59,798 nucleotides of DNA from Candidatus Limnocylindria bacterium (GCA_038324015.1 JBBQHN010000001.1:1-59798); one strand, 5' to 3'; positions 52,783 through 59,798 are shown, counted from the stretch's first letter. The notes: generated from the sequence alone by a model not told the origin. Made by a program: numbers and translations.

Positions 52783-53538
52783 TTACCGGAACATGTCCTT
52801 GTCGTGTGGGCGCACGTACGTGTGCGCCGTCTCGCTCGGATCGGCAGGCAACGGCAGGCCTCTGACGATCGCAGCCGGCCGGCGGTCGAGCTTCCCCATC
52901 ACGAGCTCGGTCGCGGCCGCGATCTCGTCCGCAATGGCGATCTCGGTCACGCGCATCTCGTAGCCGTCGGGATCGAACTCGCCGATGTAGCGGCGCAGGG
53001 CGGGCAGGCCGCTGATGCCGATCGCGACGTTCACGTGACCTTCGCGCCAGGCCCGCCCGAACGTGTCGGTGATGACAACGGGCACGTCGACGCCCGCATC
53101 ATTCTTGATCCGCTCCCGGATGCGCCTCGCCGATCCATCGGGGTCCACCGGTAGGAGGATCAACGTATCCGGCGCGCCTGCGTTGGAGTGGTCCACACCT
53201 GCGTTCGCACACACGAATCCGTGCTTCGTCTCGACGATGAGCACCCCGCGCTGCCAGCGAACGATGCGAGCAGTCTCATCGAGCACCGCCTGCAGCGCGC
53301 GCGCGTCCTTGCCGGACTCCGCGGCCATGCGCTCGGCCTCCGCGCCGGCCACAACGTCCGCGAGCTTCCGGATCCGGCCCTCGGCCTTCGACACGATCTT
53401 CTGCGCGAGCGCGAGGACGTCGCCCGGCTGGAGGCGATCGCCGGACGCCTTCAGCGCCGCGAGCAGCATCCCCACGAGGTCGTCGCCGGGCTTGATCTCA
53501 GGAAGGCCATCGATGGGGATGAGGGTGACGTTTGGCAC
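52783..53538 (-). CDS. cofE: coenzyme F420-0:L-glutamate ligase (stand-alone CofE)
   Basis: (M)PNVTLIPIDGLPEIKPGDDL...ALAQKIVSKAEGR...GFVCANAGVDHSN...ITDTFGRAWREG... GTG 53538. The rest of track ORF 52783..54825 is shadow. Confidence 0.85.
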   Translation of the reverse strand: MPNVTLIPIDGLPEIKPGDDLVGMLLAALKASGDRLQPGDVLALAQKIVSKAEGRIRKLADVVAGAEAERMAAESGKDARALQAVLDETARIVRWQRGVLIVETKHGFVCANAGVDHSNAGAPDTLILLPVDPDGSARRIRERIKNDAGVDVPVVITDTFGRAWREGHVNVAIGISGLPALRRYIGEFDPDGYEMRVTEIAIADEIAAATELVMGKLDRRPAAIVRGLPLPADPSETAHTYVRPHDKDMFR

Positions 53539-53598
53539 AGCAAAAGTCTCGCTGATAGCGTGGCTTAATGCTCGACGGCCACCTCCGGTGACACGCGC

Positions 53599-54042: not shown

Positions 54043-55053
54043 ATGGACTTCGGGTTCACGCTCAAGCCGGACCATTCGCTCGAGCGCGTCGTCTCGTTGA
54101 CGAAGCTCGCCGAGCGCGCGGGCTTCACGCACGGCTGGGTCTTCGACAGTCACGTCCTCTGGAAGGAGCCCTATGTGCTCCTGACCCTGATGGCACAGAA
54201 CAGCACGAAGCTCCGGCTCGGCACCTGCGTCACGAACCCCGCGACCCGCGAGCCCTCGGTGACCGCGAGCGCGCTCGCGGTGCTCCAGATCCTCTCGAAG
54301 GGCCGCATGGACCTCGGCATCGGCCGAGGCGATTCGGCGCGCCGCGTCCTTGGGAAGAAGCCGACGACGCTCGACGATCTCGAGGCGGCGACCGTCGCGA
54401 TCCGTGATCTTTGCGAGGGCCGCACAGTGACATACGACGGCACCGATCTTGTCCTCGACTGGGCCGAGGCGTATGACCTGCCGGTGTGGATCGCCGGGTA
54501 CGGCCCGAAGGCGCTCGCAATCACCGGCCGCATCGCCGACGGCGCCGTCATCCAGCTCGCCGACCCGAGCCTGGTCGGGTGGTGCGTGGGACTGCTCCGC
54601 GACGGGGCGCGCGCGGCCACGCGCGATCCGAAGGACGTGCAGGTGATGGTCGCGGCGCCCGCGCACGTCGGCACCAAGGCCGACGTCCGCGAACGGGTGC
54701 GCTGGTTCCCCGCCCTCGTGAGCAACCACGTGGTGGACCTCGTGCGCCGGTACGGCGAGCAGGGGCTGCCCGCGGACCTCACGCGTTACGTTCGCGACCG
54801 TCCGGGCTACGACTACAAGCACCATGCCGAGTCCGGATCAGCGAACGCCGGCTTCGTCGACGACGAATCGGTAGATCGGTTCTGCGTGACCGGCGACGTG
54901 AGCGAGCAGATCGAAAAGCTCCGCGCACTCGCCGAGGCCGGCATGACGCAGTTCAACATGTACCTGATGAGCGGCGATGAGGAGGAACAGCTCGAGGCCT
55001 ACGGGAGGGACATCATCCCCAAGCTCAAGGCGCTGAAGGGAGCGACGAAGTGA
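54043..55053 (+). CDS. LLM-class (luciferase-like) F420-dependent oxidoreductase
   Basis: MDFGFTLKP...LAERAGFTHGWVFDSH...LGTCVTNP.TR.P...GRMDLGIGRGD... is a typical LLM/Mer-like pattern. Confidence 0.8.
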   Translation: MDFGFTLKPDHSLERVVSLTKLAERAGFTHGWVFDSHVLWKEPYVLLTLMAQNSTKLRLGTCVTNPATREPSVTASALAVLQILSKGRMDLGIGRGDSARRVLGKKPTTLDDLEAATVAIRDLCEGRTVTYDGTDLVLDWAEAYDLPVWIAGYGPKALAITGRIADGAVIQLADPSLVGWCVGLLRDGARAATRDPKDVQVMVAAPAHVGTKADVRERVRWFPALVSNHVVDLVRRYGEQGLPADLTRYVRDRPGYDYKHHAESGSANAGFVDDESVDRFCVTGDVSEQIEKLRALAEAGMTQFNMYLMSGDEEEQLEAYGRDIIPKLKALKGATK

Positions 55054-55556
55054 ACACCCCGGAGCTGCTGGTCGAGTTCTTCAAGCACAACACGATGATG
55101 AATCGGCGGCTGCTCGAGGCCTGCTGGAGGCTCACGCCCGATCAGCTCGGCGCGACGGCCACGGGTACCTACGGCAGCATCGGCCGCACTCTCGTCCATC
55201 TCGCGAACGGCCAGGTGAGCTACACGGCGCGGCTCCTGGACACAGAACGGCCCGAGCGCCTTCTGGAGGATCCGTTCCCCGGCTTCGAGGCCCTCGCAGC
55301 GCGACTCGACCGCGGCAACGCGGAGCTCGAGCGATCTGCGACGCGCGGCGACCAGGATCGGAGCGTCCAGGTGACGGGCAACGACCCGCCAGGGACGTGG
55401 TCGATCCCCGTGCCGCTCTTCATGCTGCAGGCGATCAACCACGGCACCGAGCATCGCGCGCAGATCGCCGCGATCCTGACCCAGCTCGGGATCGAGCCGC
55501 CCGAAATGGACGGCTGGGCCTACTTCAAGGAGAGCGGGCACCTGACCCCCGTCTAG
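55050..55556 (+). CDS. DinB-family (four-helix-bundle metalloprotein) protein
   Basis: ...FKHNTMMNRRLLEA...TLVHLANGQ...INHGTEHRAQI... shows the His triad spacing of DinB/YfiT. GTGA overlap. Confidence 0.75.
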   Translation: MNTPELLVEFFKHNTMMNRRLLEACWRLTPDQLGATATGTYGSIGRTLVHLANGQVSYTARLLDTERPERLLEDPFPGFEALAARLDRGNAELERSATRGDQDRSVQVTGNDPPGTWSIPVPLFMLQAINHGTEHRAQIAAILTQLGIEPPEMDGWAYFKESGHLTPV

Positions 55557-56575
55557 CGGAGGACGAAGCCCTCGCGGAGCGGATCGTCCGGCGCGATCCA
55601 GAGCTCAGAGCGCCCGACGATCCACGCCGAGCCCGCGACCTCCGGCACGACCGCGGCGTGTGGGCCGACCTTGGCCTCCCGAAGGACGCGACCTCGGAAG
55701 CGGGTCCCGATGATGCTCTCGACGGTGAACGTCTCGCCGTCGCGCAGCCGTCCGCGCGCGTGCTCGATCGCGACCCGGGCGCTCACGCCGGTGCCCGTCG
55801 GCGAGCGGTCCACCTCACCCTCGGCGAAGACGCAGACATTCCGCGAGTCGGCGCCCGGCTCGTGCGCCCGACCCGTGAGGATCGTGCCGTACAGAAAGGA
55901 AAGATCGGCGGAATCAGGCGAATCCGGGTGCCGCACCTCGCGGCTCGCCATCACGGCGCGCTTGATCCGCATCCCCACGTCGATGCATTGGCGGAAGCCG
56001 CTCGGGTCGAGCGGCACGCCCAGCGCGTCCGCGTCGACAAAGGCGTAGAAGGCGCCCCCGAACGCGAGGTCGTAGCGGACCTCCCCGATGCCCTCGACCC
56101 GCACCGTCTCATCCAGCGCAGCGGCGAAGGACGGCACGTTCTCGAAAGCGACCTCTCGGACCCGGGCACCGTCACGCACCGCCGTCGCGGTCACGCGACC
56201 CGGCGGCGCGTCGTAGCGGATGACATCGCCCGTGTGCGCACCCGTCTCGAGGAGCGCCGTCGTGAGCGCGATGATCCCGTGGCCGCACATCGTGCTCCAG
56301 CCCTCGTTGTGCATGAACAGGACACCAAGATCGCCGTCAGGCGTGACGGGCTCGGTGAGGATCGCACCGTACATGTCCGCGTGGCCGCGAGGCTCGAACA
56401 CGATCGACCGGCGCAGGCCATCGAGATGCTCCCGCGCATAACGGCGCTTCTCGAGGATCGTCTTGCCCGGGATCGGATCGACGCCGCCGGTGATGATGCG
56501 GAGCGGCTCGCCCGCGGCATGCGTCTCCAAGGTGCCGATACGGCGCCATCCGGAGGGCGGCTCCCATCGCTTCAT
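55553..56575 (-). CDS. proline racemase-family enzyme, Cys/Thr type (predicted trans-3-hydroxy-L-proline dehydratase)
   Basis: ...THAAGEPLRII.GG...GHADMYGAIL...EGWSTMCGHG (first catalytic Cys) and ...GEVDRSPTGTG (Thr where racemases/epimerases have the second Cys). ATGA overlap with the amidohydrolase stop. Confidence 0.8.
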   Translation of the reverse strand: MKRWEPPSGWRRIGTLETHAAGEPLRIITGGVDPIPGKTILEKRRYAREHLDGLRRSIVFEPRGHADMYGAILTEPVTPDGDLGVLFMHNEGWSTMCGHGIIALTTALLETGAHTGDVIRYDAPPGRVTATAVRDGARVREVAFENVPSFAAALDETVRVEGIGEVRYDLAFGGAFYAFVDADALGVPLDPSGFRQCIDVGMRIKRAVMASREVRHPDSPDSADLSFLYGTILTGRAHEPGADSRNVCVFAEGEVDRSPTGTGVSARVAIEHARGRLRDGETFTVESIIGTRFRGRVLREAKVGPHAAVVPEVAGSAWIVGRSELWIAPDDPLREGFVLR

Positions 56576-57789
56576 GCGCGCTTCTGTACGACGCCGTCCT
56601 TCATGACGAATGCGATGGAGGCCGGGTCCTTGAACAGCCCGATGTTCGCGAGCGGATCGCCCCGCACGCCGATGATGTCGGCCCGCTTGCCCGTGACGAT
56701 GGTGCCGACGAGCGCGCCGACGCGTGCGCACTCCGCGGCGGTCTTCGTCGTCGCCACGATCGCCTGCATCGGGGTCATCCCGTTCTCGACCATGACCGCG
56801 ATCTCCTCGGCGTTCGTGCCGTGCGGCCCCACCCCGCTGTCGGTGCCCATCGCGATCTTGACCCCGGACTCGACGGCCATCCGGAACGACTGCCGGTGGG
56901 CCTCGATGACCTCCTTCGACTTGCGGACCGCGTACGGCGGCATCGCTGAAGGATCCTTCTCGGCGCGGCGCAGCACCCACATCGGCGCGATGAGCGTCGC
57001 GACGAGATACGTGCCACGCCTCTTCATCTCCGCGCAGGCCTCCTCATCGAGGTAAATGCCGTGCTCGATCGACTCGACACCGGCCAGGACGGCGTTCTTG
57101 ATCCCCTGGTTCGCCTGCGCATGGGACATGACGGTCTTGCCGGAGGCGTGAGCTTCGTAGACGACCGCCGCGATCTCCTCGGGCGAAAACCCGGTCGCGC
57201 CGGGCTCGTCGTTCGGCGAGAGCACTCCGCCGGAGGTCATGATCTTGATCTGGTCGGCGCCGGCGCGAAGGACCAGGCGGGCCGCACGCCGGACGCCGTC
57301 GATGCCATCGACCACGCCGTTCGGCCGCTCCGGATCGCCGGGCCAGATGACCACGCCGGACGGAGTCATCGAATCGCCGTGACCGCCGGTCTGCGACAGC
57401 GGCGTCACGGCGATGCGCATGCGAGGACCGGGGAACAGTCCGCGCTCCACCGCCAGCTTCACCCCGCGCGTCGTGAATCCGGCGTCGCGAACGGTGGTGA
57501 AACCCGCCTCGAGCGTCGTACGAGCGGCGGCCAGAGCCATCGCGGTGTTGAAGCTGAGCGGTGTGAGCAGCCGCTCCTGGATGTTCTGCTGCGGGACCGC
57601 AAGGTGGACGTGGCAGTCAATGAGCCCGGGCAAGATCGTCAGGTCACCCGTGTCGATGATCTCGGCGCCCTTCGGCGCGTCCGACGCGACCTTGGTGATC
57701 GCGCCGTCCTCGATGACGATGAACTGTCCACGCGTCGGATCCGCGCCGGTCCCGTCGATGAGCGTGGCCGCGCGAATGGCTGTCGTCAT
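56572..57789 (-). CDS. amidohydrolase-superfamily enzyme (COG1228-type, prolidase/imidazolonepropionase-like)
   Basis: ...LIDGTG...ILPGLIDCHVHL (HxH metal site), ...IKIM.SGG..., ...SHA..., ...IEHG..., ...GTDSG... Confidence 0.8.
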   Translation of the reverse strand: MTTAIRAATLIDGTGADPTRGQFIVIEDGAITKVASDAPKGAEIIDTGDLTILPGLIDCHVHLAVPQQNIQERLLTPLSFNTAMALAAARTTLEAGFTTVRDAGFTTRGVKLAVERGLFPGPRMRIAVTPLSQTGGHGDSMTPSGVVIWPGDPERPNGVVDGIDGVRRAARLVLRAGADQIKIMTSGGVLSPNDEPGATGFSPEEIAAVVYEAHASGKTVMSHAQANQGIKNAVLAGVESIEHGIYLDEEACAEMKRRGTYLVATLIAPMWVLRRAEKDPSAMPPYAVRKSKEVIEAHRQSFRMAVESGVKIAMGTDSGVGPHGTNAEEIAVMVENGMTPMQAIVATTKTAAECARVGALVGTIVTGKRADIIGVRGDPLANIGLFKDPASIAFVMKDGVVQKRA

Positions 57790-58742
57790 GCGATCGCCGC
57801 CTCCAGTTGCGGCCGCACCTCGGTCGCAATGCGCTCGATCGTCTCGTGATCGAACGGTGCCTTGACGTACAGGATGAAGCCGCGTGCTCCCGCCGCCCAG
57901 AGCGCGGCGCAGCGTTCCACGAGCGCGTCGACCGTGTGGATCGCATTCATCGCGAGCGGCGCTGTGGCGCGGGAGCGGCTGCGCACACGCTCGAGGTGCG
58001 CCTCGACGTCGGGCGTCCGCTCGCGAAGGATCACGTCCGGCCGGACCGTCGTGAGCGGCGTGATCTCCGCGACGTCGCGACCGATCTCGGCGCAGTGCGC
58101 CGCGAGCACGTCGAGCTTATGCCGGATGACCGCGGGGTCACCGTGGCCGTGCCAGTAGTCGGCATAGCGAGCGACCGTGCGTAGTGTCTTCTGCTCCCCG
58201 CCACCGCCGATGAGGATCGGCAGACGCCTCTGCACCGGCTTCGGCTCGGCGACCGCGTCCTTCAACCGGTAGTGCTTTCCCTCGAAGGACGAAGAGCTCT
58301 GGTCGAGCAGCAGCCGGAGCACGCGGGCCGCCTCGTCCATGCGCGCGAGGCGGCCACCTGTGCTCGGGAACGGAATGCCATACATCGCGTGCTCGGCCTC
58401 GTGCCACGCGGCGCCAAGGCCGAGGATCGCGCGGCCCGCTGACACGTGGTCCAACGTGACGGCCATCTTCGCCAGTACCGGTGGATGCCGGTACGTGTTC
58501 CCGGTGACGAGGGTCCCGAGGCGCACCGTCTTCGTGATAGCCGCCCACGCCGCCAGGAGCTCCCAGGCCTCGAACATCGGTCCTTTCGGATCTCCATCGA
58601 GCGGCACGAAGTGATCCCAGGTGAAGAGCGAGTCGAACCCGAGGCGATCCACGAGGAGCGCGGTGTCACGGAGCTCGGGCCAGGTGGTGTGCTGTGCCGG
58701 CAGGTTGATGCCCCAGTGGACCCGCGAAGCGCTGGCGGCTAT
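57786..58742 (-). CDS. LLM-class F420-dependent oxidoreductase
   Basis: ...VDRLGFDSLFTWDHF...LGTLVTGNTYRHP...GRAILGLGAAW... The track ORF starts at GTG 58652, but the conserved VHWGINLPAQHTTWPELRDTALL lies upstream in frame with no ATG/GTG/TTG back to the stop at 58788-58790. Candidate start is ATA 58742, overlapping the aminotransferase TAG (ATAG). Confidence 0.7.
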   Translation of the reverse strand: MAASASRVHWGINLPAQHTTWPELRDTALLVDRLGFDSLFTWDHFVPLDGDPKGPMFEAWELLAAWAAITKTVRLGTLVTGNTYRHPPVLAKMAVTLDHVSAGRAILGLGAAWHEAEHAMYGIPFPSTGGRLARMDEAARVLRLLLDQSSSSFEGKHYRLKDAVAEPKPVQRRLPILIGGGGEQKTLRTVARYADYWHGHGDPAVIRHKLDVLAAHCAEIGRDVAEITPLTTVRPDVILRERTPDVEAHLERVRSRSRATAPLAMNAIHTVDALVERCAALWAAGARGFILYVKAPFDHETIERIATEVRPQLEAAIA

Positions 58743-59798
58743 TCGAGCTTCCCCGTGCTGGCATAGCGGTCGGCGATCTCGAGCACCTCATCGATAGCGC
58801 GAATGCCGATGCGAAGCTCCTCCTCGGTCACGATGAGCGGAGGCGCTACGAACAGCATGTTCCAGCGGCAGAAGACATACACGTCGCGCTTGAACAGCGC
58901 GGACTTGAGCGCGTTCGCGAGCGCGCTCGACGGACCGTTCCACTGCTCGAGCATCTCCTTCGTGCCGCGGTCCTTCACGAGCTCGATGCCCCAGAAGAGT
59001 CCGCGCCCACGCACGTCGCCGATCGACGGATGCTTCCTGGCGAGCGCTTTGAGCTCACGGCCGAGGAGGTCGCCCATCGTGGCCGAGTTCCCGATCAATC
59101 CCTCGCTCTTATACGTCTCGAGCGTCGCGATACCGGCGGCGCACGCGAGGGCGTGACCGCTGTAGGTCAGGCCGCCCCAGTAGACGTTCTGGTCGAAGTG
59201 CTTCGCGACGCGCTCGTTCACGATCGCGCCACCGAGCGGCACGTAGCCCGAGGTGATGCCCTTCGCGAAGGTCATGATGTCCGGCGCCACGTTCCAGTGC
59301 TCCGCGGCGAACCACTTCCCGGTCCGTCCGAATCCGGTCATGACCTCGTCGAACACGAGCAGGATGCCGTGCTTGTCGCAGAGGGTCCGGAGGCCCTGGA
59401 GGAATCCGTCCGGCGGCACGAGCAGGCCGGATGTGCCGACGATCGGCTCGAGCAGGATGGCGGCGATGTACTGCGGACCTTCGTACCAGATGACCTCCTC
59501 GACGTGCGCGAGCGCCTTCTGCGCGTCGTCGCCGAAGAGCGAGCGGTAGGGATCCGGATTCAAGAAATGGACCACGCCGGTGATGCCGGGCTCATTGGCC
59601 CAACGACGGTTGTCGCCCCCGAGCGTCATCGCGCCCTGGGTCTGGCCATGGAAGCTCCGCCACTGGGTGAGGATCTTGTGCCGGCCGGTCGCGAGGCGAG
59701 CGAGCTTGATGGCGTTCTCGTTGGCCTCGGTGCCGCCCGTCGTGAAGATCGTCCGGGTCAGGTCGCCGGGCGTCACGTCCGCGAGCATGCGCGCGAGG
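58739..59798 (-). CDS. class III (omega-type) PLP aminotransferase, 5' end beyond window
   Basis: ...TTGGTEANE...LLEPIVGTSG...VFDEVMTGFGRTG...TFAKGITSGY (PLP Lys). The frame is open to the window edge. Confidence 0.85.
   Translation of the reverse strand, partial: LARMLADVTPGDLTRTIFTTGGTEANENAIKLARLATGRHKILTQWRSFHGQTQGAMTLGGDNRRWANEPGITGVVHFLNPDPYRSLFGDDAQKALAHVEEVIWYEGPQYIAAILLEPIVGTSGLLVPPDGFLQGLRTLCDKHGILLVFDEVMTGFGRTGKWFAAEHWNVAPDIMTFAKGITSGYVPLGGAIVNERVAKHFDQNVYWGGLTYSGHALACAAGIATLETYKSEGLIGNSATMGDLLGRELKALARKHPSIGDVRGRGLFWGIELVKDRGTKEMLEQWNGPSSALANALKSALFKRDVYVFCRWNMLFVAPPLIVTEEELRIGIRAIDEVLEIADRYASTGKLE

Follow-up and report, generated by a model that had tools for sequence, protein, structure and literature searches.

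The stretch of Candidatus Limnocylindria bacterium DNA analysed here (GCA_038324015.1 JBBQHN010000001.1:1-59798; 59,798 nucleotides, hereafter the window) derives from a sediment/soil metagenome and ends in an operon of four minus-strand genes. The first gene encodes a class III (omega) aminotransferase (58739 to >59798), which runs past the window end and has its C-terminal 352 residues inside. It is followed by LLM_A (57786–58742; 318 residues from an ATA codon), a luciferase-like oxidoreductase of the TIGR03560 (Rv1855c-type) family, by a COG1228-type metal amidohydrolase (56572–57789; 405 residues), and by a predicted Cys/Thr dehydratase of the proline-racemase family (55553–56575; 340 residues). 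The coordinates and junction sequences agree with the original prediction for this locus, in which ATAG, ATGA and ATGA overlaps chain the four genes. The aminotransferase TAG overlaps the LLM_A ATA at 58739–58742 (junction GAATAGCC), the LLM_A stop overlaps the amidohydrolase start at 57786–57789 (junction GCATGACG), and the amidohydrolase stop overlaps the dehydratase start at 56572–56575 (junction GCATGAAG). Neither promoter-like nor terminator-like motifs are found inside the four-gene unit, which together with the overlaps suggests that the genes are co-transcribed. No RNA runs covering the region were found.

The dehydratase matches PF05544 over its full length (354 bits; residues 16–338 on profile positions 2–325). 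Its best solved relative is the trans-3-hydroxy-L-proline (T3LHyp) dehydratase of Thermococcus litoralis, TlLhpH (6R76/6R77; 1e-124, with 193 of 335 residues or 58% identical), and human L3HYPDH (7QPO) is matched at 6.5e-85. Cys97, which lies in the motif STMCGHG (codon 56285–56287), and Thr260, which lies in DRSPTGTG (codon 55796–55798), align with the equivalent residues of 6R76 and 7QPO. This Cys/Thr pair is the defining rule for T3LHyp dehydratases, and dehydratase activity has been demonstrated biochemically for the T. litoralis enzyme (PMC4141209). The protein scores below the NCBIfam equivalog cutoffs of NF045511 (356 versus 540) and NF047722 (241 versus 550), and likewise falls under the cutoffs of the proline racemase and 4-hydroxyproline epimerase models. 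The prediction of a T3LHyp dehydratase, which had been made from the Cys/Thr pair, is solid, because the profile match is full-length, the pair is in place and the identity to the characterised TlLhpH reaches 58%. Horizontal transfer of the gene from archaea, considered in view of the similarity to Thermococcus, was rejected: the nearest relatives (70–72% identity) are other Limnocylindria, and the GC content is uniform. An exact match to the dehydratase protein occurs on one 8.5-kb Logan contig, which adds no upstream sequence.

The amidohydrolase matches PF01979 (175 bits) and NF051886 (347 bits, under the cutoff of 500), and its HxH metal motif is formed by His60 and His62. The best solved relative is the L-Arg carboxypeptidase Cc2672 (3MTW, 2e-69), while ADH3/ochratoxinase-type enzymes and the prolidases 3FEQ, 3MKV and 2QS8 all give similar scores. 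The enzyme had been described as prolidase-like. Its place in the COG1228/HxH family with prolidase relatives holds (1e-54 to 2e-69 for a set that includes the L-Arg/Lys carboxypeptidases Cc2672 and Sgx9359b, the Xaa-Pro/N-acyl-Pro hydrolases Sgx9260b/c and ochratoxinase/ADH3), but it is not clearly nearer to prolidases than to arginine carboxypeptidases or ochratoxinases, and ochratoxinase-type enzymes match it as well as the Sargasso prolidases do. The amidohydrolase probably frees a C-terminal imino or amino acid, from Xaa-3-hydroxyproline (Xaa-3Hyp) or N-acyl-3Hyp.

The aminotransferase fragment matches PF00202 (264 bits) and the NCBIfam model PRK06062 (473 bits). Its N-terminal ~100 residues fall beyond the window end, and the full-length copy in the closest relative (L014; 97% identical to the window copy) scores 579 bits against PRK06062. 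The closest solved or characterised relative is the taurine:2-oxoglutarate aminotransferase Toa (6JIX, 1e-107). Taurine is the sulfonate isostere of beta-alanine. In nitrogen-release modules, Toa partners non-homologous aldehyde reductases (PMC6616044).

LLM_A matches PF00296 (161 bits) and TIGR03560 (258 bits versus a cutoff of 231). Among NCBIfam models, its four best matches are F420 LLM families, and no model named Apd6 is among the matches. The best PDB sequence matches are SsuD-type sulfonate enzymes, which depend on reduced flavin mononucleotide (FMNH2) and are weak matches at 1e-21. Mascotti et al. 2018 offers no F420-versus-FMN sequence motif usable here. Distant TIGR03560-like LLMs from metagenomes (38–47% identity) often lie within 2–3 kb of cofE (L096, L105, L112, L127, L134, L136, L139, L144 and L153; L numbers denote loci in other genomes and metagenomes), and this proximity gives contextual support to the F420 label of the family.

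The first ATG/GTG/TTG-type codon in the LLM_A frame is an internal GTG at 58652. LLM homology (HWGINLPAQHTTW...) reaches further up, as far as the ATA of the ATAG overlap; since in addition the base preceding the aminotransferase TAG is A in 12 of 12 relatives (codons GAA, GCA and GGA), and the ATA frame is open in these 12 through a linker that differs by whole-codon indels, ATA is probably the LLM_A initiator. The 4-nt overlap between the two genes is kept across lineages and the overlapping 'start' codon differs. The junction reads ATAG in the window clade and in L083, L087, L089 and L092, GTGA (GTG) in L082, L168, L169 and L173, CTGA (CTG) in L167, L171 and L086 (where an ATG also lies downstream in frame), GTAA (GTA) in L088, and CTAG (CTA) in L172. 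Such variation resembles termination-reinitiation in which near-cognate initiators are tolerated. The LLM is shortened to 263–293 residues by gene callers.

To follow the operon through relatives, LLM_A orthologues (56–80% identity) were traced by protein searches, contig look-ups and a metagenome scan. In every lineage examined, an aminotransferase 61–89% identical to that of the window lies directly upstream of LLM_A; the adjacency is found at 13 clade genome loci and in L082, L083, L086–L089, L092, L167–L169 and L171–L173. Ten lineages (L082, L083, L086, L089, L167, L168, L169, L171, L172 and L173) carry the pair but neither the dehydratase nor the COG1228 amidohydrolase. A dihydropyrimidinase lies upstream of the pair in six of the ten lineages outside the clade (L082, L167, L168, L169, L171 and L173). 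In L082 and L167–L169 this enzyme belongs to the TIGR02033 equivalog (606–625 bits versus a cutoff of 393 in the NCBIfam scan), and in L171 and L173 it was called from tblastn identity or from Pfam family and length. A CN_hydrolase of the N-carbamoyl-amidase type also accompanies the pair in three of the ten (L082, L168 and L171). L168 is a tight operon of CN_hydrolase, dihydropyrimidinase, aminotransferase and LLM, in which the CN_hydrolase matches N-carbamoylputrescine amidase at 5e-65 and animal beta-ureidopropionases at 2e-56 in the PDB. The extended reductive pyrimidine pathway is laid out as the ureidopropionase PydC, the dihydropyrimidinase PydB, the beta-alanine aminotransferase PydD and the malonic semialdehyde reductase PydE (PMC7332683). 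By analogy, the gene order of L168 is this PydC-PydB-PydD-PydE layout, with the LLM in the PydE position.

Several other genes accompany the pair in these lineages. In L169 and L173, an NMT1-type ABC transporter adjoins it. In L173 (1–2124 and 16818–18257), genes for an F420H2-dependent FDOR (PF04075) and an FAD amine-oxidase-like protein come after the dihydropyrimidinase, and a xanthine/uracil permease is encoded 7 kb past the aminotransferase-LLM pair; this could represent an F420-linked substitute for dihydropyrimidine dehydrogenase. In L082 (829–3125) and L167 (2–823), the N-carbamoyl-amidase-type CN_hydrolase is overlap-coupled to an aldehyde dehydrogenase upstream of the dihydropyrimidinase. 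The best match of this aldehyde dehydrogenase is alpha-ketoglutaric semialdehyde/2,5-dioxovalerate dehydrogenase, below cutoff.

On the other side of the operon, the window encodes cofE (52783–53553, minus strand; TIGR01916, 277 bits versus a cutoff of 181), which lies 4 kb from LLM_A, a PPOX protein of TIGR03668 (53599–54030, plus strand) and LLM_B, an LLM of TIGR03842 (54043–55053, plus strand). Wherever a lineage has enough flanking sequence, the LLM_B-PPOX-CofE block is syntenic beside the aminotransferase-LLM_A pair. The backbone order that is kept is [Pyd-type genes], aminotransferase, LLM_A, [slot], LLM_B, PPOX, (LLM), cofE, and it is the slot after LLM_A that varies. In the window clade it holds the amidohydrolase and the dehydratase (and DinB in some members), in L172 an S51 peptidase and in L083 genes for M13, GNAT and S51 proteins; in L168, L169, L171 and L173 it is empty. 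In the LLM tree, the clade linked to the amidohydrolase and dehydratase (14 rows, support 100/99) is nested inside the dehydratase-less, aminotransferase-linked branches L086, L082 and L083/L089. Because of this nesting and the variable slot content, the amidohydrolase-dehydratase pair was, as judged from tree and gene order, inserted into an older operon specifically in this lineage.

The dehydratase has a different history of neighbours. A scan of species-representative genomes with the dehydratase returned 80 loci. The full order of aminotransferase, LLM, amidohydrolase and dehydratase, together with LLM_B, PPOX and cofE, is present at 14 of the 15 loci with a dehydratase at least 84% identical (~14 species), and none of the 66 more distant loci, which include Limnocylindria at 66–72% identity, has an aminotransferase, LLM or amidohydrolase adjoining the dehydratase. 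The linkage of dehydratase and LLM is restricted to one shallow Limnocylindria clade of ~14 species. The distant loci carry other partners: an OCD/mu-crystallin gene (PF02423) lies on the dehydratase strand at 26 of the 66, within 3 kb at 25 of these, and an M24 Xaa-Pro peptidase lies near the dehydratase orthologue at 8. The best NCBIfam match of the OCD neighbour is a delta1-pyrroline-2-carboxylate (Pyr2C)/Pip2C reductase model, and OCD is the canonical partner of the dehydratase. In sister Limnocylindria, OCD is found ~1 kb upstream of the dehydratase. The Limnocylindria form one clade of the dehydratase tree, with three branches: the aminotransferase-LLM-linked genes (14 rows, support 100/100), the OCD-linked genes (11 rows), and 10 'orphan' genes that neighbour ABC-2 transporters, SDR, DinB and ferritin. 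A dehydratase without an adjoining reductase is common.

Five dehydratases under other taxonomic labels (L012, L022, L030, L035 and L037, labelled as Saccharimonadales, Bathyarchaeia, Acidiferrales or Dormiibacterota) nest within the Limnocylindria clades, and L012 carries the complete Limnocylindria operon. These are probably mis-binned contigs of metagenome-assembled genomes.

Taken as a whole, the operon would be a mosaic of two translationally coupled two-gene modules, a PydD-PydE-like one and an inserted one for 3Hyp salvage; we hold this reading with moderate confidence. It builds on observed features of the locus and its relatives, namely which genes are present, how they overlap, the Cys/Thr residues and where the linkage occurs. 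Module 1 would consist of the aminotransferase and LLM_A, an old conserved pair of this Chloroflexota group, in which the Toa-like aminotransferase may take the amino group off beta-alanine or a close beta/omega-amino acid, and LLM_A may reduce the malonic or methylmalonic semialdehyde product with F420H2. Module 2 would consist of the amidohydrolase and the dehydratase, inserted in one Limnocylindria clade between LLM_A and LLM_B-PPOX-cofE. There, the amidohydrolase would liberate 3-hydroxyproline from Xaa-3Hyp or N-acyl-3Hyp, and the dehydratase would turn trans-3-hydroxy-L-proline into Pyr2C; the enzyme that reduces Pyr2C is probably encoded elsewhere than in the operon. The peptidase-dehydratase logic of module 2 is suggested by the M24 peptidases that adjoin dehydratase orthologues in other genomes.

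Both modules resemble known systems in part. The dehydratase shares its fold and catalytic pair with the enzymes of the LhpH/LhpI systems (Azospirillum brasilense, T. litoralis TlLhpH-TlLhpI and human L3HYPDH), and the orthologues in sister lineages adjoin OCD/mu-crystallin and Xaa-Pro peptidases, as in known clusters. In contrast, the window operon has no OCD/LhpI, and its dehydratase is coupled to a COG1228 amidohydrolase behind the aminotransferase-LLM pair. Module 1 is similar to PydD-PydE in that a class III aminotransferase precedes a reductase and that sister-lineage operons include PydB and a PydC-like N-carbamoyl-amidase. Here the reductase belongs to the F420-class LLMs and not to the M-ADH or SDR proteins, no PydB or PydC lies near the pair in the window clade, and no PydA was identified. 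By analogy, LLM_A would be at most a functional counterpart of PydE from outside the PydE families.

Several points weigh against the mosaic. The substrates of the aminotransferase, LLM_A and the amidohydrolase are drawn from genomic context, and the link to Pyd-type catabolism comes from sister lineages; neither a dihydropyrimidinase nor a carbamoyl-amidase is found within the available flanks of the window's own clade. To our knowledge, PydE enzymes are M-ADH or SDR proteins and none is an LLM, and we know of no described F420-dependent aldehyde reductase of the PydE kind. The translational coupling of all four genes is a classic hint of a shared pathway, and the 59.8 kb hold no canonical Pyr2C reductase for the product of module 2.

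The Toa-like aminotransferase also allows another substrate for the pair. Here the two enzymes would act on a different small omega-amine, such as taurine/hypotaurine, a 2-aminoethylphosphonate derivative or a hydantoin-derived amino acid, with the LLM reducing the resulting aldehyde (e.g., sulfoacetaldehyde to isethionate), and module 2 would be an unrelated insertion. Its logic is that of the taurine modules, in which Toa is combined with IsfD, TauF or SarD, that is, an aminotransferase with a non-homologous aldehyde reductase. Among solved structures, the aminotransferase comes closest to the taurine:2-oxoglutarate enzyme, NMT1/TauA-type binding proteins of an ABC transporter adjoin the pair in L169 and L173, the SsuD-type PDB matches of LLM_A point the same way, though weakly (1e-21), and TIGR02033 enzymes double as hydantoinases. 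However, the dihydropyrimidinase and carbamoyl-amidase of the sister lineages indicate beta-alanine or beta-aminoisobutyrate and less so sulfonates; the pair lacks sulfonate-specific neighbours, with no xsc, isfE or tauD seen in the annotated flanks; and the reductase comes from another family than those of the Toa modules. We regard this assignment as possible but unlikely.

The original prediction joined the dehydratase to LLM_A directly: LLM_A would be an F420H2-dependent Pyr2C reductase that replaces the NAD(P)H-dependent OCD type, in a route from Xaa-3Hyp through 3Hyp and Pyr2C to L-proline. In such a scheme, the aminotransferase might provide this imine from a different amino acid. Much of what was brought forward for this proposal stands. 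Its literature precedent is sound, as the LLM-fold enzymes Apd6 and LmbY use F420H2 to reduce the endocyclic imine in pyrroline-2-carboxylates substituted at position 4 (PMC8498797, PMC8518648). By family assignment, LLM_A shares the LLM/TIM-barrel fold and the F420 class with the Apd6 group (LmbY, HrmD and TomJ-type enzymes); Apd6 acts in actinobacterial antibiotic clusters, whereas LLM_A stands in a catabolic context with an aminotransferase as conserved partner. Profile matches confirm the adjoining cofE/PPOX/LLM module, and all four genes are overlap-coupled. The canonical reductase is also lacking locally, as had been stated: tblastn finds no OCD/mu-crystallin homologue in the 59.8-kb window, and no OCD lies within ~8 kb of the dehydratase in 13 clade genomes (the LDH2/MDH2 type was not searched for), versus ~1 kb upstream in sister Limnocylindria. 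A homologue search from a Limnocylindria OCD returned only proteins at least 82% identical and is hence uninformative for the window's clade. This local absence is weak evidence for a replacement, because many dehydratase orthologues have no adjoining reductase, among them a whole Limnocylindria clade.

The original prediction had itself named a gene association not conserved in relatives as refuting, and this is essentially what is seen: dehydratase and LLM adjoin each other only where the dehydratase is at least 84% identical. The co-occurrence is confined to one nested, shallow clade and represents a single derived event, the ten lineages listed above have the pair without the dehydratase, the conserved partner of LLM_A is the aminotransferase, and the ancestral setting of LLM_A is probably pyrimidine-type catabolism. 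LLM_A as the replacement for the Pyr2C reductase is improbable on these grounds. We think it equally improbable that, within this clade, the older F420-dependent LLM_A reduces Pyr2C, whether through co-option or through sufficient promiscuity.

All four enzymes could instead be placed in one linear path, in which 3-Hyp freed by the amidohydrolase is dehydrated to Pyr2C, the ring of Pyr2C opens to yield 5-amino-2-oxopentanoate, loss of the delta-amino group to the omega-aminotransferase leaves 2,5-dioxopentanoate, and the LLM oxidises or reduces this semialdehyde. Class III aminotransferases work on omega-amino groups, and L082 and L167 both carry, close to the pair, the gene that resembles alpha-ketoglutarate-semialdehyde dehydrogenase. 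Against this route, the aminotransferase-LLM pair is older than the dehydratase linkage and also occurs without the dehydratase, open-chain Pyr2C is a minor species by established chemistry, and the route is without precedent, which makes it very improbable. It is likewise highly doubtful that LLM_A is an FMN-dependent monooxygenase, which would make the hydride-transfer models wrong: the F420 label of TIGR03560 stems from phylogenetic profiling rather than assays and the best PDB matches are FMNH2-dependent, but LLM_A exceeds the TIGR03560 cutoff with F420 families as its top four matches, has cofE and a further two F420-class enzymes beside it in every lineage, belongs to a family with many metagenome members near cofE, and has no flavin reductase partner present.

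With this dehydratase, the range of T3LHyp dehydratases anchored by experiment extends to abundant Chloroflexota of soil, and the pairing of the enzyme with the LLM, which dissolves on comparison with relatives, illustrates that operon adjacency can mislead. Under the mosaic reading, the aminotransferase and F420-class LLM behind dihydropyrimidinase and carbamoyl-amidase predict that reductive pyrimidine/beta-alanine catabolism has, at its last step, a new isozyme that depends on F420. If true, the pair would include the first F420-dependent PydE-type semialdehyde reductase and would link Chloroflexota pyrimidine catabolism to F420. It would also give a first testable function to the large uncharacterised TIGR03560/Rv1855c family, whose mycobacterial namesake is Rv1855c. 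Should LLM_A reduce Pyr2C after all, 3-hydroxyproline salvage would run on F420H2 rather than NAD(P)H, and hydroxyproline catabolism would have its first F420-dependent step.

Two further features adjoin the operon. A paralogue of LLM_A, termed LLM_A' (50% identical; TIGR03560 232 bits versus the cutoff of 231), is encoded in L014 (3523–4461). It is divergent from the aminotransferase with ~20–30 nt between the starts, an arrangement conserved in L086, L088, L092, L167 and L171, and in the window genome it would fall past the window end, as expected from L014. At the other end, DinB (55050–55556, plus strand) is convergent with the dehydratase; apart from the window, only L006 and L014 have it in the slot, and its stop overlaps that of the dehydratase by 4 nt (55553–55556).

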